Below, in pieces: positions 40,492 through 57,462 of a stretch of 60,625 nt of DNA. Source of the stretch: a virus. Taxonomy: Duplodnaviria > Caudoviricetes. The stretch spans positions 1 through 60,625 of the IMG/VR virus record IMGVR_UViG_3300048996_000177, one strand, 5' to 3'. The notes beneath the pieces are model-generated. The model saw only the letters and a list, made by a program, of their open reading frames with translations, ran no database searches and had not been told where the DNA came from. Position 1 is the stretch's first letter, and every line of letters starts with the position of its first letter. The translations under genes and the position numbers were made by a program.

Positions 40492-41997
40492 ATGAAATAC
40501 CGGTGGAAGACAAAACCGTATAAGCATCAGGTGCGCGCCGTTCGAACCTTGTTACGAAATGGGTTCGGCGGCGCGTTGTTGATGGAGCCTCGAACGGGCA
40601 AGACGAAAACGGCTATTGATTGGATGTCCATTCTGGCGCAACAAGGAAAGATTGATCGTGCGGTCGTCATGTGCCCTGCACGGGTCGTGGACGTGTGGGT
40701 GGATGAATTCCACCGGCATTCCCCGTTGAACGTCCACACGCACGTCTGGGACGCCAAAGCACGTAAATCCGCACCACTCCCTCGGGTGTCATCGGCGTAT
40801 GACCTCACGGTGATTATCGTGAACTACAACGCGTTTGCCACACCGGGCAAGCGGTTGACATCTGGCCGACGATCCAAAGCCAATGGGCGATTCAAGTTCC
40901 GGGCGGAAATCAACAAGTGGTTGAAAACTGGGAAAACCGGCGCGGCATGCGCGTTGGATGAAAGCCACAAGATCAAGAGTCCATCGGGTAAAGCGGCCAA
41001 CATGGTGGTGTCCATGGGAAAGATGTTCCCGTATCGCCTGTTAATGACCGGTACACCGGTGACAAAAGCCAAACGGATTCATGATCTGTACATGCAGTGG
41101 AAATTCTTGAACCCGACGCGGTTGGACAATCTGGGGTTGCACACGGTCGAGGACGTCAAGAATTTCACCGGGGTGTGGACAGACCGTAACGGATACAAAC
41201 AATGGCTCCGTGGACGTGATGAAAACCTGGGGAAGCTGACCCGGGCCATTCACCAGGATTCTTTCGCTGTCCGTAGATCAGAATGTTTCGATCTCCCCCC
41301 ACGGGACCTTCAACATATCTGGGTGGATTTGTCTCCAAAAACCGCACGGTTGTACGACAAGATCGCCACCGAAATGGTAGCGGAAATCGAGCATGCCAAG
41401 CGAACCCATACAGTCGAAGCGTCCATCAAATTGGTACAGGGATTGCGATTACGGCAGATCACCGGCGGCGTGGCAACCACCGATGAGGGTAAGCTCATCC
41501 GTGTCGGACGTGAGAAGTTAATCGCGTTGGAGGAGTTGCTGGACGAGATTATTGAGCATGATGAGAAAGTAGTCATCGCCGCACATTTCAAAGCTGATTT
41601 GAATAGCATTGCCAAATTGACCCGTAAGTTAAAGATGCCCACGTTTGAATTGCGCGGAGGCATCAAACGGGAAGAAGCGACGATGAACATCAAGCGGTTC
41701 AAGAATTTGGATGGGGCTGGGGCATTCGTCATGCAACCCCAGGCTGGTGCGTTGGGTATTGACCTGTCAACGTCCAGCCGGATTATTTGGTACAGCGTGA
41801 CGCCGTCGTGGGTGGACTGGACACAATGCAACGACAGGATTGCACTGTCCAAAGTGTCCACCACCGAGACGTACATCATGGCGCGCGGGACGATTGACAA
41901 GATTCAATACGACGCATTGCAAGACGACACTGATGTTGCGAAAATGATTACCGATCGGCCGGAACGAATTCTTCGCCGGACTCGAAAATTGCCTTAA
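40492..41997 (+). CDS. SNF2-family (superfamily 2) helicase
   Basis: PYKHQ, MEPRTGKT, DESH, MTGTP, LGIDL and QCNDRI motifs. Confidence 0.9.
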   Translation: MKYRWKTKPYKHQVRAVRTLLRNGFGGALLMEPRTGKTKTAIDWMSILAQQGKIDRAVVMCPARVVDVWVDEFHRHSPLNVHTHVWDAKARKSAPLPRVSSAYDLTVIIVNYNAFATPGKRLTSGRRSKANGRFKFRAEINKWLKTGKTGAACALDESHKIKSPSGKAANMVVSMGKMFPYRLLMTGTPVTKAKRIHDLYMQWKFLNPTRLDNLGLHTVEDVKNFTGVWTDRNGYKQWLRGRDENLGKLTRAIHQDSFAVRRSECFDLPPRDLQHIWVDLSPKTARLYDKIATEMVAEIEHAKRTHTVEASIKLVQGLRLRQITGGVATTDEGKLIRVGREKLIALEELLDEIIEHDEKVVIAAHFKADLNSIAKLTRKLKMPTFELRGGIKREEATMNIKRFKNLDGAGAFVMQPQAGALGIDLSTSSRIIWYSVTPSWVDWTQCNDRIALSKVSTTETYIMARGTIDKIQYDALQDDTDVAKMITDRPERILRRTRKLP

Positions 41998-42018
41998 TAA
42001 AACACCCATTGGTATGAT
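41989..42018 (+). promoter_or_regulatory. Promoter for the nucleotide-metabolism / polymerase cluster
   Basis: TTGCCT, 18 bp, TATGAT with an extended TG. Confidence 0.6.
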
Positions 42019-42032
42019 ACAAATTGATACGA

Positions 42033-42617
42033 ATGGAGGCGATTAAAATCATCATAGTTGAGGGACCGGATGGTGCAGGGAAAACAACCCTGATCAATAA
42101 AATGGTGCATACGCTCAACCTTCCGGTCCACGCACGGTCGGCCAATTCGGACGGGTCGGCCACCCAATCCACAGAAGGCAGTCGGGGGGCAAATTTATCG
42201 TTATGGGCGTACAACGACGTGACGACACAACTGAATCAGCCCACATCCATTTACGATCGGCATTGTCTGATCTCGGAGTTCGTTTATGGTCCAATTCTCC
42301 GGGCTCATGTGCCCGTCGAAATGACTGGACCGGCAACGAGGTTATTGATCCAGATGTTGGCGAAACAGGTGTTGGTGGTGTATTGCCGTCCCCCGAATGA
42401 AAACCTCGTCATCAACTGCCGGAAAACACCCCAGCCCATTCCACACCTGAATGACCAGAACAATGTGTTGAAGGTGGCCGCCGGTTATGACGCGTGGCGG
42501 GTGAATTGGATGGGTCAGTCCACAATGTTCGATTACACCAACCCGAACGACTTCGCGTCGGTCATGTCCGCGTGCCGCCTGCACATCGCCCATTTCGAGA
42601 ACATGAGGAAATCATGA
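42033..42617 (+). CDS. P-loop deoxynucleoside monophosphate kinase (thymidylate kinase-like)
   Basis: IIVEGPDGAGKTT; IYDRH..SE.VYG. Confidence 0.82.
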   Translation: MEAIKIIIVEGPDGAGKTTLINKMVHTLNLPVHARSANSDGSATQSTEGSRGANLSLWAYNDVTTQLNQPTSIYDRHCLISEFVYGPILRAHVPVEMTGPATRLLIQMLAKQVLVVYCRPPNENLVINCRKTPQPIPHLNDQNNVLKVAAGYDAWRVNWMGQSTMFDYTNPNDFASVMSACRLHIAHFENMRKS

Positions 42618-43141
42618 CGGTAGTTAGTTGCCCCAGTAATTGCAAGGTGTCGGCCCAGCATTTTCACAAGGATGGGAAAACTGTGTGGGGCAACCCACCA
42701 TATGAAGAATCCACCCTGGCGCGCGTGCAGCGGGAATCGGGGGAGTGGCGACAGATCGCATATCCGACCACGGCCACCCCGGAATTGCAAGCGTTGGGTA
42801 TGGCGGAAGAAGTGGGGGAGGTGTGTCACGCGGTGTTGAAAAACATCCAGCAAATTCGGGGGTACAACGGGGAAAAGACCATCGCGGAAGTGGGTGACGG
42901 GCTGGCCGACACAATCATCTACGCGTGTGGGGTGGCTACGGCATTCGGTATCGACCTGGACGCCGAATTGGCGCGGGTGTGGAACCACGTCCGGGATCGC
43001 AACATCACGCAAGGATCCATGGGCAGTGGCAATACCAAATGCCCCCGGTGTGAATCCCCGGAGTCGAAGTTGCATCCAGCGGTTCAATTCGAGGGTGAAG
43101 TTCAGCCGTGTCCCCACGAGTTTCACAAGTCCGCCGAATGA
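42614..43141 (+). CDS. MazG-like nucleotide pyrophosphohydrolase
   Basis: LGMAEEVGEV...DGLADTIIY. Confidence 0.82.
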   Translation: MTVVSCPSNCKVSAQHFHKDGKTVWGNPPYEESTLARVQRESGEWRQIAYPTTATPELQALGMAEEVGEVCHAVLKNIQQIRGYNGEKTIAEVGDGLADTIIYACGVATAFGIDLDAELARVWNHVRDRNITQGSMGSGNTKCPRCESPESKLHPAVQFEGEVQPCPHEFHKSAE

Positions 43142-44079
43142 TCAACGCGCTGGGATTTGCCACGGCCAATGACGCACATGAAGGCATGTGCAACAAGCTG
43201 ATGTTTGGCGAGAAATGGGGACGAGATTACGACTGGTCGCAAGGGACCGAAGTCGGATTGCACAATGTCGTCATCGGTGCGGATCGGTTCGACTGGGAAT
43301 ACGATCTGAAACGGCTGTGGATGGCCAAGTCCCGGTGGAACATGATGGTGCGGCAATACCTGGACCCGGATGCGGTTGAGGATTGGTTTGCGAAGATCGA
43401 GGATCGATTGGTGGGTAAAGGACGTGGGATTGCTGTTCTACGCACCAAATTGGTGCAAGGCAAAGGAACCGGGCGCGGTGTGCGTCGCCGGTGGGGATCG
43501 TGCATGCTCTCCATGTCATATCGCACCAATCCCATTCCGACCATCACCCTTCATTCGAGGACCACGTATTTCGGGTATCTCGCGGCTATGGACATCACGG
43601 TTGCCCACGTCCTTGCTCGATACATTTCTACGATTGTCGGTATCGATCCGGCGGAAATGAATTTCGTCTGGAATCTGGAACTGGCGCAATTCCACGGGTT
43701 CCGGTCATTGGCGTGGCCGTTGGGTAACCCGGATATCCGTGAACAGATGGACGACGATGTCCACACCCACAAGACGTTTCCAGCTAAACCGCCAAAGGGC
43801 CAACTCCATCTCCCGGTTGCCGGTGGTTACCGAAAGGCGTTGGATGGATATGCACGCCTGATGAAATCGGACCTGGAAAACAAGCTGTATGGGGACGAGT
43901 CATTCTCATCATTCGCGCGGGTACGCCGCCGGTATCACGCTGAAGTTCATGGACCGGAATTCGCCGCACAATTTGAAGGTGGTACGCGTAACAAAGGGGG
44001 ACACAACATGTTCACCCCACTTCCACACCTCCATTCGTCCACATTGGACTTGACACCCATCGGATTTGAGGAATTATAG
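43138..44079 (+). CDS. Highly divergent thymidylate-synthase-fold protein (Asp-type)
   Basis: WGSCMLSMSY...TLHSRTTYFGYLAAMD...FVWNLELAQFH lines up by eye with the TS core PC...QRSxDxxxGxPxN...HIY. Confidence 0.55.
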   Translation: MINALGFATANDAHEGMCNKLMFGEKWGRDYDWSQGTEVGLHNVVIGADRFDWEYDLKRLWMAKSRWNMMVRQYLDPDAVEDWFAKIEDRLVGKGRGIAVLRTKLVQGKGTGRGVRRRWGSCMLSMSYRTNPIPTITLHSRTTYFGYLAAMDITVAHVLARYISTIVGIDPAEMNFVWNLELAQFHGFRSLAWPLGNPDIREQMDDDVHTHKTFPAKPPKGQLHLPVAGGYRKALDGYARLMKSDLENKLYGDESFSSFARVRRRYHAEVHGPEFAAQFEGGTRNKGGHNMFTPLPHLHSSTLDLTPIGFEEL

Positions 44080-44472
44080 ATGTCCAACGAATTGACCGAA
44101 GCCGAAGTTGGTAGAACGCTGCGTTTCGTCCAGCGCGGGATGACCAACGAAGAAATCGGCTTCCAGTTACACATCGGTACCACGGCAGTAAAAAACCGGC
44201 TGTCCAAGTTGATGGCCCGGTATGGGTGCCGCAATCGTACCGAACTGGTTCAAGCCGCGATGTCCCGTGGTTTGTTGTCGGACCCGACCATTACGGTGAA
44301 CACCGGTCGGCACAGCAACGGCCAGTATTTTGTCGTCGTGATCACGCCCGGCCGGGAAGACACCGTGGCCAGTTGGTGTTCCAAGGCCGATGCCGACATG
44401 TTGGCATGTGCATTGCGGGGATACCTCAATGCGTCCACCATCACCGATTGGCGGAAGGCACGGGGAAACTGA
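44080..44472 (+). CDS. LuxR/NarL-type HTH protein
   Basis: LTEAE...GMTNEEIGFQLHIGTTAVKNRLSKLMARYGCRNRTELV. Confidence 0.85.
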   Translation: MSNELTEAEVGRTLRFVQRGMTNEEIGFQLHIGTTAVKNRLSKLMARYGCRNRTELVQAAMSRGLLSDPTITVNTGRHSNGQYFVVVITPGREDTVASWCSKADADMLACALRGYLNASTITDWRKARGN

Positions 44473-44473
44473 A

Positions 44474-45409
44474 ATGTTCGCATTTTTCGGGGCCAACACT
44501 ATCATGGAACTGGAACCTAACGTCGGTGATTGGACCGAGCACATTGACCGACTGCGGAAAGCGTTGCGGGATGCGCCGCTGGTCGAACGCGGACGGGTAC
44601 ACGCACAGGATGTATCCAGCGACCCCTCATTTGGCACGTATGAGCTTGCCAACATCGTCGTGACATATCCGGTGCCGACATACGTTCGATCGTTACAGGC
44701 GCATATGAGCCCCAATTTGCCATGGGCCGAAGACCACTTTGCCGAACGGGTGGGTGGGGAGCCGTTGAACCCCGCACCCAGTGAAGCGTGGTGGCCGTAC
44801 AAAAAAGATGGCAATGCGGCGCACAAGGACGGCGAGAAATTCAGCCACACGTACCCGGAACGCATGTGGCCGACGACGGCTAACACCGGGTGGATGTGGG
44901 ATAACGACAATGGTTCCACGCCTGTCATGGAATTGGAATCCAGCGGTCAGGGATGGGTGTGGAAAGGAACAGACACCGTCGTTGATTTCCAGGCGGTGGG
45001 GTACAAGCGGGCCCGACGACACGGTATTCGATACGACTATGGTGATTTGAATGCAGTGGTTGATCTCCTATCCCGCGACATTCATACTCGTCAGGCGTAT
45101 CTACCCATTTGGTTCCCAGAAGATACAGGCGCAATTGAAGGTCAGCGTGTCCCATGTAGTTTGGGATACCACTTCATCAAACGTGGGAATCAGATTGATT
45201 GTCAATACTTCATGCGGTCATGCGACTTTTTCCGACATTACGTTGACGACGCATATATGGCTGCACGGCTCCTGCAATGGGTGGTACGCCACACCCGCGA
45301 GTCCAATCCACAACTGGTAAGGGATGGATTGTCAACGGGTAATCTGACGATGTTCATTTCCAACCTCCACGCTTTTGTCGGCGATGAATATCTGTTGAAC
45401 GGAGAATGA
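44474..45409 (+). CDS. Thymidylate synthase homolog, dCMP hydroxymethylase/methylase-like
   Basis: TRQA, catalytic PC, MRSCDFFRHYVDD (Asp at the E. coli ThyA Asn177 position), ISNLHAF. Confidence 0.8.
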   Translation: MFAFFGANTIMELEPNVGDWTEHIDRLRKALRDAPLVERGRVHAQDVSSDPSFGTYELANIVVTYPVPTYVRSLQAHMSPNLPWAEDHFAERVGGEPLNPAPSEAWWPYKKDGNAAHKDGEKFSHTYPERMWPTTANTGWMWDNDNGSTPVMELESSGQGWVWKGTDTVVDFQAVGYKRARRHGIRYDYGDLNAVVDLLSRDIHTRQAYLPIWFPEDTGAIEGQRVPCSLGYHFIKRGNQIDCQYFMRSCDFFRHYVDDAYMAARLLQWVVRHTRESNPQLVRDGLSTGNLTMFISNLHAFVGDEYLLNGE

Positions 45410-45675
45410 TGGATACTGAATCCGATCGGGAAGCTGAGGCGGAATTCCGTCCACACCTGACGAAGTATTTAGCGGCCACTGGACAGCTTCGGGACAACCA
45501 CTTGTTGATGCACTACGGTGTTCTTCACGTCGCCGTAGCGATGGATGCAGATGCCGAACACACCGTTGGATTTATCCCTGATTCCGACTGGCCATACGCA
45601 TATCAATTGGGAGCGTTACAATACGCGCTTACGGTCCACAAGGGACAGATCGTTCGAGATGGTGATGAACTTTGA
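45406..45675 (+). CDS. Hypothetical protein
   Basis: Overlap-coupled ORF inside the cluster. Confidence 0.6.
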   Translation: MMDTESDREAEAEFRPHLTKYLAATGQLRDNHLLMHYGVLHVAVAMDADAEHTVGFIPDSDWPYAYQLGALQYALTVHKGQIVRDGDEL

Positions 45676-46094
45676 CCAGAACCAGTCGGGACCAGATGTT
45701 GATGGATATGGCGTTCATCGTGGCCGCGCGTGGTACATGTTCGCGGTTGCAGGTGGGCGCTGTGGTGTCCATGGACGGCCGTGTGTTGTCATCGGGGTAC
45801 AACGGCGCACCGGCGGGTTTCGACCACTGTATGCACAGTCCAGCCCAAGATATGCCGTGCACGCAAGCGGTTCACGCAGAAGCCAATGCGATCGTGTTCG
45901 CCGCACGGCACGGTGTGGCAACCGGCGAAGCTATTCTCCACACCACACATCTGCCGTGTCCCGCATGCGCCCGGTTAATCATCAATGCGGGGATCCGCGT
46001 GGTGACATGGCAAGAACCATTTCGGAATGATTTTGGACTGGAACTATTAGAACGTGGAGGAGTTGAGTGGTATCAGCACCCCAGAACCGGATAA
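45672..46094 (+). CDS. dCMP deaminase
   Basis: GYNG, HAEANA and PCPAC zinc motifs. Confidence 0.9.
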   Translation: MTRTSRDQMLMDMAFIVAARGTCSRLQVGAVVSMDGRVLSSGYNGAPAGFDHCMHSPAQDMPCTQAVHAEANAIVFAARHGVATGEAILHTTHLPCPACARLIINAGIRVVTWQEPFRNDFGLELLERGGVEWYQHPRTG

Positions 46095-46559
46095 ACACAT
46101 AGATTGTGACATGTGTTTGCAAGAACCCGCGACAGTTGGTGATCGTTGTCAGCCGTGTCACGATTACGTTGAATGGTGGGATTCATTGACCCCCGATCAG
46201 AAACGGGCCGAGGATCACATGATCGCAGAACACGTGCAACGAGATATTGAGGGAAGGCAATAATGACCATAGCATATGTCCTCATAGGTTTATCGGTCGT
46301 CATCGGTTGTGTTGCGGGCGGAATCATGGGCCGTTTTCTTTTCAGGCGGAACCGATGACCGAGACGATGGTCAGGACAATCGTTAGCGGTGTTATTTTCT
46401 TGGCCATAATCGCGGCGATTGTAACCGTGATTTATTTCATTTCGAGGAATTGATGACCGAAACGGTGGTTCGTGAATTTCTGTTCGGATTGGGCGGAATT
46501 GCTATTGGTGTGATTCTCGGCTGCGTCATCTTGTGGGTTTGTTTCGGAAGGAAATGATA
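46066..46559 (+). other. Cluster of very small ORFs (one Cys-rich, several single-TM peptides)
   Basis: ORF ending at 46263 (CDMC...CQPC) followed by short hydrophobic ORFs; boundaries uncertain. Confidence 0.4.
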
Positions 46560-46562
46560 AAT

Positions 46563-49130
46563 ATGTCGGTGGGAAACCCCCGGATTGAGTTGGCAGTCCG
46601 CAATGCCGCGTGTACCGCGTGCAAGATGTATGTACAAGCCGATGGTGCAGATAGATGTGTGACGGCGAGCGGAAATTCAAAAGCCGATATTCTGGTGGTT
46701 TCCAAATCACCGTTGGGTGAACGAGGCAAAAAAGAGATCGTCACGTATTTGCAGCGGGCTGGTTTTGACTTGAACCAGTTCGCGTTCACCGGTGCGATCA
46801 AGTGTTTGGTGTGGGATCTAATCCCCGGCCGTAATGATTTGAAAGCATGCAAGGATTATTTGGACGCGGAGATTGAATTCATCCGTCCCAAATGGATTCT
46901 GGCGTTGGGTAACGAAGCGTTGTCATCCACGGCGGGCAAGTCCGGGATCATGAAACATCGAGCGGCGGTGTACACCCGCAAAGACGGCGTCAAAGTGATG
47001 GCTACCGTATCTCCCGCATCGGTGTACCGCAACCCCGGCCAGAAATCCGGGTTCGAGGCGGATCTGGAATACTTCAAACGGCTGACCGATGGTACCCAAG
47101 CTGATTTGAATCTCGAACCCACACCCGATCAATACCACGTGGTCGATGACAAAGAATCCATTCGCCAGATGATTTGGCGGTTGGAAAACGCCATGGCGGT
47201 GTCGTACGACATCGAGTCGAACGGGTTCGATGAATTCAAACCTGAATCACGAATGGTATCGTTGGCGGCAACCATCGAGTGGACCGATCCCAAGACCGCA
47301 CAGACGTTTTTAGACGTGTTTGCGGTGCCATTGTGGCATCCCGAATCGGTATGGCGGACGTCGTGGAAACGCGTGCTAGCAATCCTTGCGCCGTACCTGG
47401 TCAAGGTGAAACATCGCATTGCCCACAATGGCAAGTTTGACGGCCGGTGGATGCATGAATTCGGCATCGCCATTGACGAGACGTTCGACACGATGTTGGC
47501 TCTGCATCTGTTGGATGAAAACCGCCCCAAAGGATTGAAACCCGCAGCCCGCGTGATGCTGGGTGTGGAGCCATGGGCGATCGACACGAAGGATTTGGCA
47601 TCCACACCCATCGTGGAAGTGTTGTGGTACAACGCCTTGGACACGTGGTATACGTTCGGGTTGCGCAACATTCTTCGTGAACAGTTGTTGGAAAAGCCCC
47701 GGTTGGCCAAGCTATTCCAGCACATCATCATGCCCGCCTCGAACACGTTGGTTCACGTGGAACGCCGTGGGGTGTGGACAGACAAAGCCAAGCTCATGAA
47801 ACATTGGGCGATCGCACAGTCCGAATTGGAACGGGTCGATACTCAACTTCGTGCATGGGTGCCGGGAGACCACCCGTTCAAGAAGATCAAGAAACGTCGT
47901 GGCGGAGCGGTTGAGGTTATTGACGGCATTAACTTCAATCCGTCGAATTTTGCTCGGTGGTTTTTGTTTGATCATTTGGAAATGCCAATCATGGAACGGG
48001 GTAAGGACAAGCCGGATGGTTCTCCCGGTGACCCGTCAATGAAAGAATCCGTGTTGTTGGATTTGCAGGAACAGACCAACCACGAAGTCATCAACCTGAT
48101 GTTGGAACGGACGAAGTGGGAAAAATACACGTCGTCATTCTTCTCCGCATACGCCGAGCAAATTGGGGACGATGACCGAATCCACACCACATTTAAACTG
48201 ACGGGGACAGTAACAGGTAGATTGTCATCGGGCAAAGGTGACGAGGAGAAGGTTACGGCGAAGGTCCAGAACCGTGGTGTGAATATGCAACAGGTGCCGC
48301 GTGACGCATTCGTGCGTGGTATCTTCGGTGCGCCACCATCGTGGTATTTCGTGGAATTCGACTTCTCGCAAATTGAGTTGCGAGTGGCTGCATTCCTCGC
48401 TGGTGAACGAAATATGCTCCATTTGTACGCCAACGGAATCGACATTCACATGGCGATGGCCATGCGGATGACCGGCAAACCGGCCAGCGCCGTCACAAAG
48501 GAAGAACGTAAAAAGGCCAAGGCCGTGAACTTCGGATTCTTGTATGGGATGGGGTGGCGCAAATTCATCTCGACTGCATGGTCGACATACGGTGTGCGTG
48601 TTACCGAAGAGGAAGCCAAGGCATTCCGCAAAACATTCTTCGATGAATTCCCGTTGCTCATGAAATGGCATGCCGCGCAACGGCGCATTGCCCACAAACA
48701 CGGGTTCGTGTCTTCGCCGCTTGGTCGCGTGCGACACCTCCCGGACATCCACTCCCGTGACAAGGGTGTGGCCGCCGAAGCCGAACGTCAGGCCATCAAT
48801 TCACCGGTCCAGTCGTTCGCGTCGGATATGGCGTTGTGGTCGATGGTCATCGTGGATCGCAAGTTCAAGAAAATGGGATTGCAAGCCCGTGCGATCGGTA
48901 CCGTGCATGATGCGGTGAACTATGAAATCCCCAAGGAAGAATTGGCTGTGGCGTTGCCGATCATCAAGGACGTCATGGAGAATTTGCCGTTGCAAGAGGT
49001 ATTCGGCATTGACCTGACGGTACCGATCGTGGCCGATTGCAAGGTTGGCACACGCTGGGGTGGCGCGACGGAAATCAGCCCCGAGTCCGTATACGATTGG
49101 GACGATTCGTTGTTGGCGACGATTGGATGA
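46563..49130 (+). CDS. polA: Family A DNA polymerase with N-terminal UDG-like domain and 3'-5' exonuclease
   Basis: Exonuclease YDIE / HNGKFD / YNALD; polymerase DFSQIELR, KAVNFGFLYG, TVHDA; N-terminal CTAC...KC...C family-4 UDG-like region. Confidence 0.93.
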   Translation: MSVGNPRIELAVRNAACTACKMYVQADGADRCVTASGNSKADILVVSKSPLGERGKKEIVTYLQRAGFDLNQFAFTGAIKCLVWDLIPGRNDLKACKDYLDAEIEFIRPKWILALGNEALSSTAGKSGIMKHRAAVYTRKDGVKVMATVSPASVYRNPGQKSGFEADLEYFKRLTDGTQADLNLEPTPDQYHVVDDKESIRQMIWRLENAMAVSYDIESNGFDEFKPESRMVSLAATIEWTDPKTAQTFLDVFAVPLWHPESVWRTSWKRVLAILAPYLVKVKHRIAHNGKFDGRWMHEFGIAIDETFDTMLALHLLDENRPKGLKPAARVMLGVEPWAIDTKDLASTPIVEVLWYNALDTWYTFGLRNILREQLLEKPRLAKLFQHIIMPASNTLVHVERRGVWTDKAKLMKHWAIAQSELERVDTQLRAWVPGDHPFKKIKKRRGGAVEVIDGINFNPSNFARWFLFDHLEMPIMERGKDKPDGSPGDPSMKESVLLDLQEQTNHEVINLMLERTKWEKYTSSFFSAYAEQIGDDDRIHTTFKLTGTVTGRLSSGKGDEEKVTAKVQNRGVNMQQVPRDAFVRGIFGAPPSWYFVEFDFSQIELRVAAFLAGERNMLHLYANGIDIHMAMAMRMTGKPASAVTKEERKKAKAVNFGFLYGMGWRKFISTAWSTYGVRVTEEEAKAFRKTFFDEFPLLMKWHAAQRRIAHKHGFVSSPLGRVRHLPDIHSRDKGVAAEAERQAINSPVQSFASDMALWSMVIVDRKFKKMGLQARAIGTVHDAVNYEIPKEELAVALPIIKDVMENLPLQEVFGIDLTVPIVADCKVGTRWGGATEISPESVYDWDDSLLATIG

Positions 49131-49321
49131 TGATGAAGATACGGACGTTCCCCATGCGGAGCAACACCACGCGGGTGTGGAGATTCCAGTGGGCGGTGAA
49201 AGGTGGCGGACCCGTATTGAAATCGGAATCCAAGTGGTGGCGTCACCTGTCCGGTATTGTCATCAACCACGGCAGTCGGCACACCGTCATCATGTGGCGA
49301 AATTGGGAAGGGGTAATCTGA
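49127..49321 (+). CDS. Hypothetical protein
   Basis: ATGA / TGATG coupling. Confidence 0.5.
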   Translation: MMMKIRTFPMRSNTTRVWRFQWAVKGGGPVLKSESKWWRHLSGIVINHGSRHTVIMWRNWEGVI

Positions 49322-49599
49322 TGAATGACCAGTGGGCGATGAAAAAACTGGTGTTGATCGTGGACGGGCTGATTGGCGCGGTCAACGAATTGGCGTTGCA
49401 GGCGGCTGCGGAACACGACATCGAAACCGGGGTGGCATCGACGTACATGGAGTGCGTACAGGACGAACTGGACTCCGTACGGTCCTATTTGGGCGCGCGG
49501 TCGTGGGATGAAATGTACCCCGTACAGCCGCCCATACCGCAACGACACGTTCCGCCACACCTGCGGACACGCGGGCGATTCCCATGGCGTCGTTCGTGA
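49321..49599 (+). CDS. Hypothetical protein
   Basis: GAAGGGG RBS; coupled start. Confidence 0.55.
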   Translation: MNDQWAMKKLVLIVDGLIGAVNELALQAAAEHDIETGVASTYMECVQDELDSVRSYLGARSWDEMYPVQPPIPQRHVPPHLRTRGRFPWRRS

Positions 49600-50645
49600 C
49601 GGCGCTTTACGTGACGGATGAAGGTCAGTCCGTCGTCACACATTCAATGATCAAGTCCGCCCGCGACTGCATGAATATGACCAAGTACAAATACGCGGAA
49701 CGGTTGAAACCGAAATCCGAACAGGGTCCGTTGAAACGCGGGAAGTGGATCCACGCGTTGTTGGAAGTTCATTATACCGGCGGGGATTGGCGAGACGAAC
49801 ACAAGAAATGGGTCAAGCAATACAAGTCGTTGTTCGAAGAAGAACAGGACAAGTTGGGGCCATTACCCGAGATGATTGAACAGATCATGCGTGGGTATTT
49901 TTGGCATTACAAGAACGATGAAGATTGGATCGTTCATGAAACAGAATTCACCGTTGAGGCGGAATTCCCCGACGGTACCTTATACCGTGGACGGGTGGAC
50001 AACCTGGTTGAAACCCGATATGGGCTCTACCTTGTTGATCACAAGTCACACAATTACCTGCCCGGATCCACACATCGGTTGCTTGACGCACAGTCGGTGC
50101 TTTACATCTGGGCCGCCCGAAAGATGAGGATTCCCGTCAAGGGGTTCATCTGGAATTACATTCGTGCGAAGCCGCAGGCCAAATGGCGTTTCAAGCAGAA
50201 TGGAGAATTGTACGCCAACATCGGCGAGACGGATTTCCCCACAGCCGTGGCATCGTTGAAAGCGGCCGGGAAAAATTACAAGGATCCACAGTGGCGTGAT
50301 CGGTTGTTGGCATTGCAGAAGATGCGGTACAAAAAGGACGCCATACAGATGTCCCCATTTTTCCGGCGCGAGACGTTGGAAAAAGACAACGACTTGATCC
50401 GGGAAATCCTCGCGTCGGCGATCCGCACAGCCAACACGTTGAACACCTACGATTTCGACGCGCCGGGTGTGGAACGGAATCCCGGTCGTAGGTGTGAATG
50501 GGGGTGCTCGTACACCAATCTGTGCACAACTGAATTGTTGGGGGGTAATGCCGATATGGTGCGGAAACGTGAGTTTAAAATCGGTGACCCCATGGCGTAT
50601 TACCAGGATTCAAAAGACGAAGGCGGGGAGGATCGTTTTGGGTAA
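49584..50645 (+). CDS. PD-(D/E)xK exonuclease (RecB/Cas4-like)
   Basis: GKWIH, GRVD...VDHKS, Q..LY, C-terminal C..GC.Y...C. Confidence 0.85.
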   Translation: MASFVTALYVTDEGQSVVTHSMIKSARDCMNMTKYKYAERLKPKSEQGPLKRGKWIHALLEVHYTGGDWRDEHKKWVKQYKSLFEEEQDKLGPLPEMIEQIMRGYFWHYKNDEDWIVHETEFTVEAEFPDGTLYRGRVDNLVETRYGLYLVDHKSHNYLPGSTHRLLDAQSVLYIWAARKMRIPVKGFIWNYIRAKPQAKWRFKQNGELYANIGETDFPTAVASLKAAGKNYKDPQWRDRLLALQKMRYKKDAIQMSPFFRRETLEKDNDLIREILASAIRTANTLNTYDFDAPGVERNPGRRCEWGCSYTNLCTTELLGGNADMVRKREFKIGDPMAYYQDSKDEGGEDRFG

Positions 50646-50646
50646 C

Positions 50647-50973
50647 ATGCGTTGTCGGTCAGTATCCGAAATGACCGCCCGGTCCATCGCCAATTTCTGG
50701 TCCCATGTGGACAAGACCGACGAGTGTTGGTTGTGGACGGCTTCAGTTTTTGTTGCAAATGGATACGGGCAATTCAAAGGTGGCCCGTCCACACGGGCAC
50801 ATCGGGTTGCGTGGGAATTGGTTAAGGGCCCATGTCCCAAACCTCCATTGGAGCCGAACCACAAATGCCGTGTGCGACGATGTGTCAACCCGGATCACAT
50901 CGAATGGGTAACCCATAAGGAAAATTTGGAATACGCGAACAGGGTACGAAACGAACTGGGACAATACGTTTAG
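50647..50973 (+). CDS. HNH endonuclease
   Basis: FWSHVDK..CWLW...GYG...AHR...HKC..RRCVNPDHI...ENL. Confidence 0.85.
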   Translation: MRCRSVSEMTARSIANFWSHVDKTDECWLWTASVFVANGYGQFKGGPSTRAHRVAWELVKGPCPKPPLEPNHKCRVRRCVNPDHIEWVTHKENLEYANRVRNELGQYV

Positions 50974-50998
50974 TAGACCGGAAAGACGAGAAAGAAGA

Positions 50999-51235
50999 AT
51001 GAGCCAACAGTATTTGATCGTGGCCGTCATCGAAGTAGATGAGCCGCAACTGTCCAACATCGTTGCCGCGTCGTCATATGTCGAACGATTGCTCATGGGC
51101 GACGGCACGATCATCAATCGGTGCAAGGTGATCGCAACTGATGAAACAGCCGGGAAGGTGATTTCGTGGGGGGAGAATGACGACCGCATATTCACTGCCA
51201 ATCCGATTCTCCCCGAAATGGGGTACAACACCTGA
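50999..51235 (+). CDS. Hypothetical protein
   Basis: TGATG coupling to thyX. Confidence 0.6.
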   Translation: MSQQYLIVAVIEVDEPQLSNIVAASSYVERLLMGDGTIINRCKVIATDETAGKVISWGENDDRIFTANPILPEMGYNT

Positions 51236-52014
51236 TGGATGTCACCCTGGTTGCCCACACCGTCCTGTCCGAAGATATTACGAGCACCCACATCAGCAGC
51301 GCCATCGAACGATGGATGGCCCCGGTGGATGGTAAAACCCGGTCTATCGCGGACTACGATTATGACGCGGATGTGTTGGCCGAGTTCGCCGGACGTTCGT
51401 GTTATCAGTCGTTCAACCGGCCGAATCCGAAGACTGCCGCCAACAATGATTACCTGGCACACATTCTCGAATCGGCGCACGAATCGGTTCTGGAACACGC
51501 GTCGGCTACGTTCTACGTGACGGGTGTGTCGCGGTCACTCACGCATGAATTGATCCGTCACCGGCACTTGTCATATTCCGAGTTGTCCCAACGGTTCGTG
51601 GACATCGCACCGTCCAAAGAGAACAAGGCCGGTATGGCGTGGATCGTGCCATCCGGGTTAAACGTGACCGACGACCATGAAGTCATCCGGCCCATCACGG
51701 CGGTGCTGAACGACATCGTAACGCCCCTTTACCGGTCGATGGTGGAATCGTTGATGAGTCGTGGGAAAACGCGTAAGGAAGCGCGTCAGGCCGCGCGTGC
51801 CGTCATGCCGAACATGATGGAAACCAGAATTGTCGTCACGGGCAACATGCGGGCGTGGCGGGATGTGATCAAGAAGCGATACCACGTGGCGGCAGACGCG
51901 GAAATTCGGGAGTTTGCAAAGATCGTTTTGAATGAATTACGATCGATTGCGCCGAACACATTCCAGGATATGCCACACGAGCCATTCGGTTCGATGGAAA
52001 AGGGAAAGGGGTGA
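51235..52014 (+). CDS. thyX: FAD-dependent thymidylate synthase ThyX
   Basis: EFAGRSCY, HESVLEH, RHRHLSYSELSQR, GNMRAW, EIR. Confidence 0.93.
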   Translation: MDVTLVAHTVLSEDITSTHISSAIERWMAPVDGKTRSIADYDYDADVLAEFAGRSCYQSFNRPNPKTAANNDYLAHILESAHESVLEHASATFYVTGVSRSLTHELIRHRHLSYSELSQRFVDIAPSKENKAGMAWIVPSGLNVTDDHEVIRPITAVLNDIVTPLYRSMVESLMSRGKTRKEARQAARAVMPNMMETRIVVTGNMRAWRDVIKKRYHVAADAEIREFAKIVLNELRSIAPNTFQDMPHEPFGSMEKGKG

Positions 52015-52017: not shown

Positions 52018-52881
52018 ATGGCGGCTAAACCGGTGCGGTCGTCGGCGTCGAAAAAGTCATCGTCGTCCGGCAAAGATTACGAAGCGATCGCACGGAAGTA
52101 CATCACCACACCGACCGAAAAAGGTGAAACCCGAAAATTGCCTCGAATTCTGGTTTATGGCCGGAACAAAAAGGGAAAGACGACGTTCATGTCGTCGGCA
52201 CCGAATGTTCTGATCATCGACCCGGAAGAGGGTACCGATGAATTGACCAAGAAGAATCCCAAGGTGTGGCCGGTCGATTCATGGGAAGACTTGGACAACG
52301 TTTACAAATACCTGAAACTGGGGACACACCCGTACGAATGGGTTGCCTTGGACGGCATGACGAAGATCCACAACATGGCATTGCGGTGGGTTATGAATCA
52401 GGCCGAAGAACAGGATTTGGACCGGAAGCCCGGGCTGGTGCAACAACGGGACTACGGACGTGCGGGTGAAATGACGAAAGGGCTGTTGTGGAATTTCCAT
52501 AACCTCCCGATCGGGGTCATTTTCTCGGCACAGGAACGTGTGGTCCAACCGGAATTCGCCGACGATGCCGATGCCGAAATGGAGGATGCGGCGGCGGCAT
52601 ATGTGCCTGATTTGCCCGCTGGCGCACGATCCACGTTGAATTCGATCGTCGGCATCATCGGACGGATTTACATCGTCAGAGGGGATTTCAAGGTCCGTAA
52701 CAAAAAAACGGGCAAGGTTGAATTACGGGAAGGTACGTTGCAGCGCCGGTTGTGGCTGGAACCGAACGCGGCATACGACACCGGGTACAGGTCGGAATAT
52801 GAATTGCCGCCATTCATTCCGAATCCGACCGTACCCAAACTGGTAAACCTGATCCGTACCGGATCGGTAAAGGGAGTATAA
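52018..52881 (+). CDS. AAA-family ATPase (Sak4/RecA-like recombination protein)
   Basis: LVYGRNKKGKTT, IIDPEEG, VALDG; sits between exonuclease and SSB. Confidence 0.8.
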   Translation: MAAKPVRSSASKKSSSSGKDYEAIARKYITTPTEKGETRKLPRILVYGRNKKGKTTFMSSAPNVLIIDPEEGTDELTKKNPKVWPVDSWEDLDNVYKYLKLGTHPYEWVALDGMTKIHNMALRWVMNQAEEQDLDRKPGLVQQRDYGRAGEMTKGLLWNFHNLPIGVIFSAQERVVQPEFADDADAEMEDAAAAYVPDLPAGARSTLNSIVGIIGRIYIVRGDFKVRNKKTGKVELREGTLQRRLWLEPNAAYDTGYRSEYELPPFIPNPTVPKLVNLIRTGSVKGV

Positions 52882-52885: not shown

Positions 52886-53653
52886 ATGGCATCAGAGTTG
52901 AAGCGCGCCAAAGCCAAGGTCATGGACATGACCGACGTCAAGGAACGCGGTCCGTTCAACCCGGTCCGACAGGAATCCGGGGATTACCTGGCGAAGATCG
53001 TCGACGTGTTCGAAACCGACAGCAAGGCGGGTGACCCGATGTGGGTTTTCGCCGTGCAACTGGACGAGCAGAAGTCGGCCGTATACCCGATGTACTGCCT
53101 GTTGAACCCGGACAACTTCTGGAAGATCCGAATGATGTGCGTGGCCACAGGAATGGCCATTCCGAAGAAGCGCATCAAAATCGAACCGGCCAAGCTGATC
53201 GGAAAGATGATCGGCATTTCGTTGGAAGACGACGAATACGACGGCAAAATGAAGTCCGTCATCGACAAGGCATTCCCCAAGTCCGAACTGGGCGGGAAGG
53301 CCGACGACGAAGACATCGACGATGATGACGTTGATGACGAGGATGAAGACGACGACGAGCCGGAACCGCCCAAGAAGTCGAAAAAGGCACCGGCCAAGAA
53401 ATCGAAGAAAAAGGCCGCTCCTGTCGAGGAAGATGACGACGAGGATGAGGACGAAGAAGACGACGATGAGGATGACGAGGACGAAGAGGAAGAAGTCCCC
53501 GTCAAGAAAAAGGCCGCCGGAAAAAAGGTGAAGGGATCGACCAAGGTTCCCGCCAAAAAGGCCAAGGCCAAAAAGAAGGCCAAGGTCGAAGACGACGACG
53601 ATGACGATGTGGATGACGACGACCTCGATGAACTCGACGTTGACGACATTTAA
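52886..53653 (+). CDS. ssDNA-binding protein (DUF669-like) with a long K/D/E tail
   Basis: GDYLAKIVD...SKAG.PM...LIGK...EYDGK core, acidic C-terminus. Confidence 0.75.
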   Translation: MASELKRAKAKVMDMTDVKERGPFNPVRQESGDYLAKIVDVFETDSKAGDPMWVFAVQLDEQKSAVYPMYCLLNPDNFWKIRMMCVATGMAIPKKRIKIEPAKLIGKMIGISLEDDEYDGKMKSVIDKAFPKSELGGKADDEDIDDDDVDDEDEDDDEPEPPKKSKKAPAKKSKKKAAPVEEDDDEDEDEEDDDEDDEDEEEEVPVKKKAAGKKVKGSTKVPAKKAKAKKKAKVEDDDDDDVDDDDLDELDVDDI

Positions 53654-54272: not shown

Positions 54273-55358
54273 TTACCCGTTGGCCGCGCGGTACGCGGAT
54301 CGGCATGCCGTACGCGCCGATGTGGTGGATGGGTGGGTGCACGCCGCATGCGACAGGCGTCCGTTGACCATCGCGGGACCGCCATCGGTGGGTGTGGAAT
54401 CCAACCGCCCAACCGGGGGGACGGCGTCGGCAACGATTTTAATGGCGTTGATCAGATCCACGATTTCGGATGCACGGCGGGGGGTGGCGTCACGGGCGAC
54501 AACCAGGTTTCGCAACCCGATCCATGAATCGACGTCAACCCCGGCGTCGTTCAAGCTTTTGATCAGGTTGTCGACAACCACGATGTTCGGGTCGAAATCC
54601 TCGACGCGGGTGGTGGGTTCCGGGGTGTTGTCCGCGACCGTGGAGGTTTCGATTTCGGCATTGGTGCGGGGGGCATCATCGGTGCGGGTCAGGCGTCCCC
54701 CGCAAATCGGGCCGATGCCCGCGTCGATCGATTCCGGGTTGGTCAGGGTCCGTCCGCACATCATGCACCGGCCCGTCCGGCGACCGAACGCGGCAGCGAT
54801 TTCATACGACACCACGTCGTCCGACGACAGGTTTTTGACCACACCTGGGGTGTACACCCATTCGCCCGTGGCCGGGTCCAATACGACCGCGTACGGTTTG
54901 CCGGACGTCCGCGAGATTTTGACGCGGGCAACGGTGTCGTCGTACGTGTAAAAACCTTCCGCGATGACGCGACCCCGGGTGATCGGTTTCGCGGGGTTGA
55001 CCGTGCGCACGATGTTGGTGCCCGGGATGTTGCGCGTCACCGGTGCGTCATCCACCGGGGTGATTTTGGTCATTTTGACCGGACGGGATTTGCCCGTGGA
55101 TTTGCGTCCCGTGGACGCCGGTTTGGTTTCCCCGCCCAATTTGATGCCGCCGTTGGCCATGGCACCGGCCGACGACAACGGGCCGTCGTATGTGGCGGCG
55201 CATTTGTTCGCCACGGTCGCCCGTTGGGCCGGTGTGGTGTCGCGTGATGCGAATTCGGCCACCATGCCAGGGTTGGTGCGATCGTAGGCGTTGATCAACG
55301 CCTTGGTGGTCAAGTGCTCGTACCCAGTACGGGTGTTGGTGCCGCGTGTCGTCGTCAT
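54273..55358 (-). CDS. DUF6011-like zinc-finger protein with C-terminal His/Cys module
   Basis: CMMCGRTLTNPESIDAGIGPIC; HAACTHPSTTSARTACR; TACGAT, 6 bp, ATG. Confidence 0.8.
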   Translation of the reverse strand: MTTTRGTNTRTGYEHLTTKALINAYDRTNPGMVAEFASRDTTPAQRATVANKCAATYDGPLSSAGAMANGGIKLGGETKPASTGRKSTGKSRPVKMTKITPVDDAPVTRNIPGTNIVRTVNPAKPITRGRVIAEGFYTYDDTVARVKISRTSGKPYAVVLDPATGEWVYTPGVVKNLSSDDVVSYEIAAAFGRRTGRCMMCGRTLTNPESIDAGIGPICGGRLTRTDDAPRTNAEIETSTVADNTPEPTTRVEDFDPNIVVVDNLIKSLNDAGVDVDSWIGLRNLVVARDATPRRASEIVDLINAIKIVADAVPPVGRLDSTPTDGGPAMVNGRLSHAACTHPSTTSARTACRSAYRAANG

Positions 55359-55442
55359 GCGACGATCGTAAGGCATTTTGAAGATCCAACTGGAAAAATG
55401 ACCCCACACCCCGCAAGGTGTGAGGCCATCGTTATCAACCGG

Positions 55443-55712
55443 TTAGGTCATGTCGAACCCCCGTTCGATCGCCGTCACCATGTCGAACGTGGCGTTAGGG
55501 CCGGTGATGGACGGGTGACGGGCGATCATGCCCGCGAACACGTCGTACACGGCCGACATGGCCGCACCGTGGTCCACCAATGTGCCGTGCCCCAACGCGG
55601 CGGACGACCACATCAACAGGGTATTCGGTCCGTCCACACCCAACGCCTTGGCGACCGTGACGGCGGTGTGGGCCAAGAGTTCAATCGATTCGATGTTCAT
55701 AGATTTCACCAT
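55443..55712 (-). CDS. Hypothetical protein
   Basis: ORF in the leftward array. Confidence 0.55.
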   Translation of the reverse strand: MVKSMNIESIELLAHTAVTVAKALGVDGPNTLLMWSSAALGHGTLVDHGAAMSAVYDVFAGMIARHPSITGPNATFDMVTAIERGFDMT

Positions 55713-55719
55713 ATCCCGA

Positions 55720-56454: not shown

Positions 56455-56459
56455 GGTCG

Positions 56460-56939: not shown

Positions 56940-57038
56940 TGGTTTACCTCCACGTCGTCGACCCATGTTTTGGGTTCGAATTTCAGGATTTCGTCGGTGG
57001 GTGGGGGCGGCCGATCGTGAACCGCCCCCGTGGGTGGA

Positions 57039-57389: not shown

Positions 57390-57395
57390 ACGATG

Positions 57396-57424: not shown

Positions 57425-57462
57425 GCGTTTTTCATGATCCATCTGGGGTTGTTATCAAGGCG

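Follow-up and report, generated by a model that had tools for sequence, protein, structure and literature searches.

The closest described systems are those of phage T4, Xanthomonas phage Xp12, mildiomycin biosynthesis and the flavin-dependent 5-hydroxy-dCMP synthases. The T4 pathway consists of the dCMP hydroxymethylase gp42, the dCTPase/dUTPase gp56, the dNMP kinase gp1, the dCMP deaminase cd and the ThyA enzyme td. The 5-methylcytosine module of Xp12 and Pamexvirus contains a thymidylate synthase (TS) homolog, which is a dCMP methylase, a 5-methyl-dCTP deaminase and an NTP pyrophosphatase, together with DHFR, an SNF2 helicase, PolA and Cas4. The Xp12 relative AXL1 is recorded as having both a pyrophosphatase and a Cas4-like nuclease (PMC9206674). 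MilA (PDB 5b6d, 5jnh) acts as CMP 5-hydroxymethylase in mildiomycin biosynthesis, and the flavin-dependent 5-hydroxy-dCMP synthases RB69 gp48, DLP3 gp80 and HY126 AfhB (PDB 9iqc, 9iqu) are TS-fold enzymes specific for cytosine, with Asn in place of Asp169 as their signature (PMC13326640). Studies have shown that TS, PRA-PH and dCMP deaminase are found together in modified contigs (PMC8670742); a preprint adds DNA_pol_A to this set and gives deaminase genes no more than 3 kb from a TS gene as 70% for modified versus 6.1% for unmodified contigs (bioRxiv 10.1101/2024.12.05.627091). Asp at position 177 with a residue other than His at position 147 is associated with C-modified contigs (PMC8670742; PMC13326640).

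In this study, two genes of predicted TS fold, A and B, were found near the DNA polymerase gene of a soil phage of the Caudoviricetes (IMG/VR record IMGVR_UViG_3300048996_000177; the window, the whole stretch analysed, is 60,625 nt). We give about even chances to the block 42024-49130 being a T4/Xp12-like module for the pre-replicative replacement of cytosine. The gene positions in the preliminary description of this DNA were correct, and each ORF was found on the + strand:

40492-41997, + strand: SNF2-family helicase, which opens the conserved block (PF00176, 73.7 bits; PF00271)
42024-42617, + strand: P-loop dNMP kinase of thymidylate-kinase type (phrog_761 'thymidylate kinase', 2.3e-15)
42614-43141, + strand: MazG/PRA-PH-type all-alpha NTP pyrophosphatase (PF01503, 22.1 bits; cut-off 21.3)
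43138-44079, + strand: protein A, predicted divergent TS fold (phrog_13667 'unknown function', 1.7e-85; predicted structure)
44080-44472, + strand: LuxR/GerE HTH protein between A and B (PF00196, 30.5 bits)
44474-45409, + strand: protein B, divergent TS homolog (PF00303, 22.4 bits; phrog_160 thymidylate synthase, 4.7e-27)
45406-45675, + strand: 89-aa ORF between B and the deaminase, matching neither Pfam nor PHROG
45672-46094, + strand: dCMP-family zinc deaminase (PF00383, 71.8 bits)
46533-49130, + strand: family A DNA polymerase, PolA (PF00476, 266.8 bits; PF01612, 49.4 bits; PF03167, 36.0 bits)
49584-50645, + strand: PD-(D/E)XK (Cas4-like) exonuclease (PF12705, 55.7 bits)
51235-52014, + strand: ThyX, flavin-dependent thymidylate synthase (PF02511, 155.5 bits; TIGR02170, 174.4 bits)
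52018-52881, + strand: AAA_24 (Sak4/RecA-like) ATPase, which closes the conserved block (PF13479, 71.0 bits)

The order helicase, kinase, pyrophosphatase, A, B, deaminase, PolA is conserved across relatives. The SNF2 helicase and the kinase were both found in 49 of the 51 related loci, with the helicase upstream on the same strand in all 49; PolA, which has a 3'-5' exonuclease and an N-terminal UDG-like domain, was also found in 49/51, the Cas4-like exonuclease within the conserved block in 46/51 and the AAA_24 ATPase in 44/51. The LuxR HTH gene had been counted as part of the cluster, and it is present here, but no homolog was found in the 51 related loci, so it is an insertion peculiar to the present genome and lies outside the conserved module. 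The 89-aa ORF, with a homolog in 0/51 loci, is not conserved either. The cluster had also been credited with its own promoter. The promoter-like site TTGCCT-18-TATGAT at 41989-42018 is real, but it is one of 13 such sites in 18 kb, a number expected by chance (11.8 ± 3.5 in shuffled sequence), and in the 49 loci with both genes the kinase lies downstream of the SNF2 helicase in the same orientation; a private promoter is not supported.

Protein B is a very divergent TS homolog. Its PF00303 score is slightly below the cut-off of 24.3 bits, its identity to solved TS structures is about 14%, and it has an insertion of roughly 30 residues. Residue rules drawn from ThyA may not transfer to a protein of this divergence. 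The catalytic Cys228 and the RSCD motif are retained, and Phe is present where ThyA has Tyr209. In the motif RSCDFFRHYVDD, Asp259 lies 11 residues after Arg248 and aligns with Asn177 of E. coli ThyA and with the Asp of T4 gp42 and of the Xp12 TS, while Ser229 stands at the E. coli His147 position and Arg225 at the Leu143 position. D259, C228 and R225 were kept in 50/50 loci, and the His147 position was Ser or Thr in all 50 B relatives. The closest PDB entry to the B-family profile was the CMP hydroxymethylase MilA (6.5e-6), which was also joint best by structure (VIA Z 17.3 with the B model); the best match among TS entries was 1njc (8.3e-5), which is titled as an N229D mutant with dCMP.

Protein A belongs to a family not previously described; no family in Pfam or NCBIfam matched it. 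It had been called a TS-fold protein, which sequence alone could not confirm, as profile comparison of A with B gave no significant similarity (hhalign probability 0.18%), whereas the predicted structure confirmed it. The AlphaFold (AF2) model (pLDDT 91.3) aligned with the HY126 dCMP hydroxylase (9iqu) at VIA Z 16.3 (rmsd 3.8, 188 residues aligned) and with MilA at VIA Z 15.0, and MilA was the best Foldseek match (E 1.3e-6). The model points to a TS fold followed by a C-terminal helical extension of roughly 115 residues. In the motif RTTYFGYLAAMD, D152 lies 11 residues after R141. C122, R141 and D152 were kept in 51/51 IMG/VR relatives; in an alignment of 65 sequences (mean identity 24%), Y74, G120, C122, R141 and W178 were invariant and D152 was present in 93%, and the Cys, Arg and Asp rank among the most conserved residues of the protein. 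With residue equivalences taken from motif register and predicted secondary structure and not from a printed superposition, A looks capable of catalysis on a cytosine nucleotide. Because the Cys, Arg and Asp of the motifs were kept in 51/51 A and 50/50 B proteins of the IMG/VR relatives, the motifs are not due to chance. The cytosine-type Asp noted earlier is present in both TS-like proteins, and both look built for cytosine, not uracil, nucleotides.

The suggested survey of A and B neighbourhoods showed B downstream of A in 50/51 IMG/VR loci, and the sole exception was a contig ending just past A. A was present in 85 phage records (cultured, mostly actinophages) and B, at the same threshold, in 116. 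A adjoined B in the cultured-phage records inspected, and among the matches listed, most A genes had an annotated thymidylate synthase gene alongside. Serratia phage Serbin and Pseudomonas phage PMBT14 have the same layout, with a 'hypothetical' protein at the A position that retains both motifs, GxCM and R..(11)..D. The predicted complex of A and B scored 0.57, against 0.00 for controls, which faintly suggests that the two proteins act jointly, as the earlier view of a TS pair had assumed.

The kinase reached the cut-off of no Pfam family and matched dTMP kinases weakly (TIGR00041, 22.4 bits; PDB 4tmk, E 0.06); we infer that it acts on modified dCMP. The MazG-type enzyme would be a dCTPase/dUTPase, and the gene at its position in phages Tolls, Huwbert and Serbin matches PF08761 (dUTPase_2). 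The deaminase matched PDB 2hvv (5.4e-25) and T4 cd (1vq2, 1.2e-20). It was found in 49/51 loci, no more than 200 nt from the B stop in 47 of these 49, and the median gap from B stop to deaminase start in relatives was 3 nt, which suggests translational coupling to B. It may act on dCMP or on a 5-methyl-dC nucleotide.

The ThyX gene is intact (TIGR02170 cut-off 87.9), with a visible RHRHLSYSELSQR motif, and can stand as the separate dTMP source it had been taken for, but it is no pillar of the pathway: it was found in 14/49 related records and was missing from 24 of the 35 records at least 90% complete. ThyX is an accessory dTMP source outside the module core. In phage Huwbert, a canonical ThyA (404 bits) lies directly after B. 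The presence of a true dTMP synthase alongside B in such genomes (ThyX, or ThyA in Huwbert) makes a simple dTMP-synthase role for B unlikely. Neither ThyX nor canonical ThyA was found in 24/35 near-complete relatives, which would depend on the host if B gave no thymidylate directly or through the deaminase. DHFR was absent from the window and from all 49 related records, so reductive methylation gains no support. The glucosyltransferase families PF00534 and PF00535 were both absent from the window, where the preliminary description had likewise recognised no glycosyltransferase, and neither an arabinosyl- nor a glycosyltransferase was found.

The module resembles the published modified-cytosine sets of T4, Xp12 and MetaGPA contigs. 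Its all-alpha NTP pyrophosphatase, TS with Asp at 177, dNMP-type kinase, dCMP-family deaminase and PolA form the set that has been linked to C-modified phage DNA (PMC8670742; bioRxiv 10.1101/2024.12.05.627091), in line with the cytosine-modification reading first proposed. Chemical or restriction data for phages with the A-B module were not found in the literature. T4 shares the TS homolog that has Asp at position 177 and lacks His at position 147, the all-alpha NTP pyrophosphatase (gp56 and the genes of Tolls, Huwbert and Serbin are all PF08761), the kinase and the deaminase, and some members also resemble it in having a true TS besides. However, the Leu143 position is Arg in B and Asp in gp42, only the C-terminal half of B is recognisably shared with gp42, the polymerase is of family A here and of family B in T4, and T4 has no counterpart of A, while the window has no glucosyltransferase. 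As in Xp12, an Asp-type TS adjoins a dCMP-family deaminase, SNF2 helicase and PolA lie in the same replication block, and deamination of a methylated nucleotide, as described for Xp12, can give thymidylate (bioRxiv 10.1101/2024.12.05.627091). In contrast, the TS of Xp12 clearly belongs to PF00303 (138 bits, against 22 bits for B), DHFR lies beside the Xp12 deaminase but not here or in the 49 relatives, and an A-type gene is absent from the Xp12 block as judged by annotation alone. MilA, the nearest solved relative of B by profile and the foremost Foldseek match of A, also has an Asp 11 residues downstream of the Arg and shares with B an F-R pair at +5/+6; it differs in its origin from a bacterial antibiotic pathway, in its preference for the ribonucleotide, in its residue at the Leu143 position (Asp, against Arg in B) and in its identity of only 8-16% to A or B. 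The flavin-dependent 5-hydroxy-dCMP synthases are the best structural match of A (Z 16.3) and a near-best match of B (Z 17.1), but the Asp169 position, Asn in these enzymes, is Asp in B (49/50) and Tyr in A (51/51).

A less probable, though still serious, explanation is an ordinary dTTP-supply operon in a phage with canonical DNA, in which B is a highly divergent yet true dUMP-to-dTMP synthase, A an accessory protein, the kinase a thymidylate kinase and the pyrophosphatase a dUTPase, and the deaminase converts dCMP to dUMP. The four flanking activities (the pyrophosphatase annotated as dUTPase, dCMP deaminase, TS and thymidylate kinase) would also complete this pathway, and they close it; dTMP kinases are the only recognisable kin of the kinase, B and the deaminase look translationally coupled with the 3-nt median gap, and a second TS is lacking in 24/35 near-complete relatives. 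The annotations in the phage records inspected or among the matches listed agree, and this reading was published for Gordonia phage Azira (PMC10353413). However, in 50/50 relatives the B residue is Asp where E. coli ThyA has Asn177 and Ser or Thr where it has His147, both associated with cytosine substrates (PMC8670742; PMC13326640), and the closest solved relatives of B by profile are cytosine enzymes. Such a B would be redundant beside ThyX (14/49 records) and the adjoining canonical ThyA of Huwbert, and the strictly linked, active-looking A would be left without explanation.

The absence of ThyX and ThyA from most relatives and the tight coupling of the deaminase to B also suit a thymidylate bypass, in which B (or A) converts dCMP to 5-methyl-dCMP, the deaminase yields dTMP and virion cytosine stays normal. 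This 5-methyl-dC nucleotide deaminase route is documented for Xp12 and is also taken by metavirome deaminases adjoining Asp-type TS genes (bioRxiv 10.1101/2024.12.05.627091). We consider the bypass improbable; the known cases of the pathway also fill the DNA with 5mC, pool replacement accounts better for the conserved NTP pyrophosphatase and the dedicated kinase, and members having ThyX or ThyA would find it superfluous. Deaminase, TS homolog and dNMP kinase form the SPO1-type gene set too, and by this shared combination B or A could hydroxymethylate dUMP supplied by the deaminase, so that the DNA would contain 5-hydroxymethyl-dU. Such a uracil-based modification is very improbable: the specificity position of both proteins is Asp, not Asn, ThyX would contest the dUMP, and none of the 30 ORFs scanned with Pfam was recognised as a 5-hmdU DNA kinase or downstream thymidine-hypermodification gene.

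In the cytosine-replacement module that we prefer, the MazG-type pyrophosphatase would convert dCTP (and dUTP) to the monophosphate, and protein B would put a one-carbon unit on C5 of dCMP; 5-methyl-dCMP is somewhat favoured over 5-hydroxymethyl-dCMP as its product. The thymidylate-kinase-like kinase and host NDP kinase would raise this product to the triphosphate, which the phage PolA would incorporate. The deaminase would supply thymidylate from 5-methyl-dC nucleotides, which is the Xp12 route, or via dUMP and ThyX or a host enzyme. A most likely works together with B, and may be its partner in a TS-type dimer or carry out a second step on the B product. We believe that cytosine in the DNA of this phage is probably replaced by a modified base.

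The window is a complete virus record of 60,625 bases (CheckV 100%), and a near-identity search against 50,697 phage records returned no near relatives at the DNA level. Among sequencing runs, the stretch turned up solely in the probable source soil metagenome, in the form of contigs. From 40.5 to 54.3 kb every long ORF lies on the + strand. The genes of this region, identified with Pfam, PHROGs and NCBIfam, are listed below.

Genes of the window between 40.5 and 54.3 kb
40492-41997, +, SNF2 helicase (Pfam/PHROGs/NCBIfam)
42024-42617, +, P-loop kinase, whose sole recognisable kin are thymidylate kinases
42614-43141, +, MazG/PRA-PH pyrophosphatase
43138-44079, +, protein A
44080-44472, +, LuxR-type HTH protein (LuxR/GerE)
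44474-45409, +, protein B
45406-45675, +, 89-aa ORF
45672-46094, +, dCMP-family deaminase
46533-49130, +, PolA with 3'-5' exonuclease and N-terminal UDG-like domain
49584-50645, +, Cas4-like nuclease
50467-50973, +, HNH endonuclease (PF13392, 52.8 bits)
51235-52014, +, ThyX
52018-52881, +, AAA_24 ATPase

We believe that the chances are about even that this block is a pre-replicative cytosine-replacement pathway. The gene set follows the same logic as that of T4 (gp56, gp42, gp1, cd, td). It also fits phage Xp12, in which, according to the accessible part of bioRxiv 10.1101/2024.12.05.627091, a dCMP methylase works alongside a deaminase, which converts the methylated nucleotide to thymidylate. 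The same part of that preprint places thymidylate synthase (TS), PRA-PH, and DNA_pol_A with its exonuclease within 3 kb of the deaminases on C-modified metavirome contigs, and the block in the window matches this neighbourhood. For Pamexvirus, gene content and restriction resistance are documented (PMC9206674, accessible part).

The preliminary description had placed the genes correctly and had read the Arg..Asp motifs of both A and B correctly. It had also given the cluster its own promoter, which could not be upheld: the sequence at 41989-42018 matches 9 of 12 consensus positions, but 13 such sites were counted against 11.8 +/- 3.5 in shuffles, and in relatives the kinase gene simply comes after the helicase gene.

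Protein B is a divergent TS homolog. Against PF00303 it scores 22.4 bits, below the gathering threshold of 24.3. Whole-record searches covered 49 related records (45 of the 51 IMG/VR loci and four phage records, with five short loci left out), and in 33 of the 49 a PF00303 match exceeded the cut-off. Except in Microbacterium phage Huwbert, which has a canonical ThyA, PF00303 matched only once per record and weakly, and this match was taken as the B homolog. B has the TS fold: against MilA, AfhB and many ThyA structures, VIA gave Z of 16-17.3 with 203-225 residues aligned; the AF2 model of B has a pLDDT of 79, with low confidence at residues 100-190 and 210-230. A single-sequence PDB search with B gave marginal matches only (best E 0.013). 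With a profile of 35 B homologs, the best solved relative was the CMP hydroxymethylase MilA (6.5e-6), followed by L. casei TS entries led by 1njc, which by its entry title is the N229D mutant with dCMP, and by T4 dCMP hydroxymethylase and the HY126 dCMP hydroxylase.

B was aligned with E. coli ThyA, T4 gp42 and Xp12 TS from annotated records. The C-terminal half of the alignment is unambiguous, and the catalytic Cys and the R-S-x-D motif of B align with the residues of all three enzymes.

Aligned residues of protein B (E. coli ThyA numbering first)
C146: B C228, catalytic Cys, after Pro (P227)
H147: B S229 (T4 Thr, Xp12 Pro)
L143: B R225 (T4 Asp)
R166-S-C-D169: B R248-S-C-D251, motif retained
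N177: B D259 (Asp also in T4 and Xp12)
H207-x-Y209: B H299-x-F301, Phe for Tyr
R126-R127: B R206-Q207, Gln for second Arg

The accessible parts of PMC8670742 and PMC13326640 give the rule that Asp at position 177 switches a TS enzyme to dCMP, and that of PMC8670742 names positions 177 and 147 as those which best separate C-modified from unmodified metavirome contigs. D259, C228, R225 and R248 are each kept in 50 of 50 IMG/VR homologs of B, and D251, at position 169, is Asp in 49 of the 50 and Glu in one. By these published residue rules, B is predicted to be an enzyme of the cytosine and folate type rather than a hydroxylase. For T4-type dCMP hydroxymethylases, the accessible part of PMC13326640 gives as criterion Asp at 177 together with an acidic residue at the Leu143 position. 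B has the Asp, and its Arg225, three residues before the Cys (50/50) in a loop modelled with low confidence, is neither acidic nor hydrophobic. Since this Arg matches neither pattern, hydrophobic for methyl or acidic for hydroxymethyl, the product of B cannot be read from sequence.

Two other assignments disagree with the residues. B lacks the signature of a dUMP-specific ThyA, as it has Asp259 instead of Asn177 and Ser or Thr229 instead of His147, both in 50 of 50 homologs. The flavin-dependent 5-hydroxy-dCMP synthases (AfhB or RB69 gp48 type) are recognised by Asn at 169 (PMC13326640, accessible part); neither B (Asp251) nor A (Tyr144, in 51 of 51 sequences) has it.

Neither Pfam nor NCBIfam has a family for protein A, which matches a PHROG of unknown function, and its 506 database relatives are named nothing but "hypothetical protein". 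Its family profile found no TS in the PDB, a single-sequence PDB search gave one irrelevant match, and hhalign comparison of the A and B families was not significant (probability 0.18% and 0.14%). The preliminary description had called A a TS-fold protein on the strength of 12 residues. The predicted structure bears this out, while sequence profiles do not make the connection. The AF2 model (pLDDT 91.3, pTM 0.90) had 16 Foldseek matches at E <= 1e-3, all of them TS-family, with MilA at the top (1.3e-6). By VIA, A aligned with the HY126 dCMP hydroxylase (9iqu) at Z 16.3 (rmsd 3.8 A, 188 residues), with MilA at Z 15.0 (rmsd 3.8 A, 181 residues) and with ThyA enzymes at Z 11-12.

The core of A comprises residues 1-198 and is followed by a conserved helical extension (199-313). 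An exhaustive profile search collected 207 cluster representatives at E <= 1e-3. In an alignment of 65 sequences with 24% mean identity, Y74, G120, C122, R141 and W178 are invariant, and 92% or more of the sequences retain R66, S140, D152 and R261. C122, R141 and D152 are thus among the most conserved residues, and in the top, non-significant hhalign alignment they fall in the same register as C228, R248 and D259 of B; the Cys-to-Arg spacing is 19 residues in A versus 20 in B and E. coli. The order of motifs and the predicted secondary structure lead us to infer that D56 corresponds to E58 of TS, W67 to W80, Y74 to Y94, R96 to R126/127, and Q184/H186 to H207/Y209. The Tyr of A stands at the Asp169 position, and cofactor binding may therefore differ from that of folate-type TS. 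Judged by its conserved residues and its model, A looks like an active enzyme rather than a decayed copy.

By tblastn, A was found in 85 phage records, all covered at 80% or more, with the hosts Gordonia (68), Mycobacterium (9), Streptomyces (4), Microbacterium (2), Curtobacterium (1) and Mycobacteroides (1). A TS gene is annotated beside A in most of the phage records listed. B was found in 116 phage records. The 51 IMG/VR loci came from a scan with two A peptide patterns taken from a closer alignment, and the survey is biased toward relatives sharing both patterns. In 50 of these 51 loci, B is present with strand and order unchanged, and the sole miss ends just after A. The conserved block, in the same strand and order, includes the kinase, deaminase, PolA and SNF2 genes in 49 loci each, Cas4 in 46 and AAA_24 in 44. 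A always precedes B (50 loci), often with a small ORF between them, and insertions of more than 700 nt separate the two in six of the 50; the window also has an insertion. An Xp12-type arrangement, with the deaminase start within 200 nt of the B stop, was found in 47 of the 49 deaminase-bearing loci (median gap 3 nt). In relatives the B and deaminase genes are mostly overlapping or adjoining, and the 89-aa ORF separates them in the window. This ORF (45406-45675) and the LuxR/GerE HTH gene (44080-44472) break the conserved block in the window genome alone, with homologs in 0 of 51 related loci.

Serratia phage Serbin and Pseudomonas phage PMBT14 share the layout. At the position of A they have "hypothetical" proteins of 262-269 aa that keep GxCM and R-S-T...D at +11, and hhalign with the A profile was weak (probability 2.5% and 2.2%); we accepted them as A homologs solely on position and shared motifs. 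The gene between the kinase and A encodes PRA-PH/MazG in the window and PMBT14, and PF08761 dUTPase_2, the family that T4 gp56 also matches, in Gordonia phage Tolls, Huwbert and Serbin. The PMBT14 deaminase (6778-7737 of its locus L005) has 319 aa, of which only residues 178-287 are deaminase domain, and its N-terminal fusion of about 175 residues matches no Pfam family. In Huwbert, gene 68 (7774-8577 of its locus L001) is a canonical ThyA (PF00303, 404 bits) immediately downstream of the B homolog, and A, B and ThyA are encoded there as three TS-fold proteins in succession.

Complex prediction for A and B returned "weak support", with runs of 0.00, 0.59 and 0.57 (median 0.57; best control 0.00), partner pLDDT of at least 72 and contact agreement of at least 0%. 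Of 80 solved complexes, 58 reached the mark applied, as did 2 of 110 mismatches; with scores of 0.60 or less, only seven of the 80 complexes and both of the passing mismatches reached it. Since TS homodimers have already been solved, the pass may stem from structures that the predictor had learned. The prediction thus hints weakly at a TS-type heterodimer; a bolder alternative is that A carries out a second chemical step on the product of B. We also speculated that A and B, as successive or heterodimeric TS-fold enzymes, jointly build an undescribed cytosine C5 derivative at the mononucleotide level, which we consider unlikely. B would then form 5-hydroxymethyl-dCMP or an exocyclic-methylene intermediate, and Cys122 of A would re-attack C6 and swap the substituent for another group. 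No GT1 or GT2 glycosyltransferase family was found in the window, and Pfam scans of 20 further window ORFs found no modification enzymes.

ThyX scored above the curated cut-offs (PF02511, 155.5 bits vs 24.8; TIGR02170, 174.4 bits vs 87.9). Its translation (51235-52014) contains RHRHLSYSELSQR, which we take to be the ThyX motif RHRxxS. The preliminary description had let dCMP deaminase and ThyX supply dTMP and so free the TS pair for cytosine. The intact gene is indeed present in the window, but ThyX is accessory in the family, occurring in only 14 of 49 related records (11 of the 35 that are at least 90% complete). The HNH endonuclease ORF lies between the Cas4-like nuclease and ThyX, with an overlap at the end of the nuclease gene, and resembles a homing-endonuclease insertion adjoining the accessory ThyX.

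In print, the genes of Gordonia phage Azira are read as an ordinary dTTP operon (PMC10353413, accessible part), and for the present block we regard this reading as rather improbable, though it deserves weight. True dTMP synthases have repeatedly been added next to B, which argues that B itself is not a dTMP synthase. DHFR (PF00186) was found in none of the 49 related records and not in the window; its absence does not discriminate, since Huwbert, with a canonical ThyA, also has none. Another reading, in which methyl-dCMP serves as a bypass to thymidylate and the DNA stays unmodified, seems improbable to us. Under the cytosine-replacement reading, we lean toward 5mC as the base, since its formation would allow the deaminase, being tightly coupled, to provide thymidylate in the majority that lacks ThyX. 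A uracil-based modification is made unlikely by the Asp residues, and we give it very little credence.

Some further features of the region were noted. The N-terminus of PolA (46533-47100) carries a uracil-DNA-glycosylase-superfamily domain (PF03167, 36 bits, residues 71-172), which could matter if the phage handles deaminated or modified pyrimidines. After the AAA_24 ATPase, 52886-53653 encodes a 255-aa protein whose C-terminal half consists of long Asp/Glu runs alternating with Lys-rich runs, and which might act as a DNA mimic or SSB-like tail; the opposite strand across it yields spurious long ORFs. On the minus strand, 54273-60451 holds a leftward block of a DUF6011 protein, a DUF2786/DUF7168 protein and a 759-aa AAA_25 (RepA-like) helicase, which opposes the + strand replication block at 40.5-54.3 kb, as is likewise the case in Tolls.

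The type of pathway is already known. What appears to be new is its occurrence in actinophages, a B subfamily that, by sequence, has Arg at 143, Phe at 209 and an N-terminal half unlike ThyA, and above all the linked A family. The literature search found no report of cytosine modification in actinophages; the supplements of bioRxiv 10.1101/2024.12.05.627091 (Supplementary Figure 1E) and PMC13326640 (Figure 6) lay outside it and may include tested B-type enzymes. A strictly linked pair of TS-fold genes, or paired TS-fold proteins, was not described in the literature searched. The TS fold has recently given unexpected chemistry in the form of flavin-dependent hydroxylation (PMC13326640, accessible part), and A would be a new TS-fold branch with an intact-looking active site. 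If A and B do build an undescribed derivative, a new hypermodified base, made without a glycosyl- or other post-replicative transferase, would be widespread in phages of Gordonia, Mycobacterium, Streptomyces, Microbacterium, Serratia and Pseudomonas. If the cytosine-replacement reading is true, 85 cultured records, mostly teaching-collection actinophages and including Mycobacterium phages isolated on Mycobacteroides abscessus, would carry an overlooked non-canonical cytosine in their DNA. Such a cytosine would alter how their DNA behaves in cloning, restriction mapping and nanopore sequencing, and how the phages fare against restriction and other defences that target DNA.
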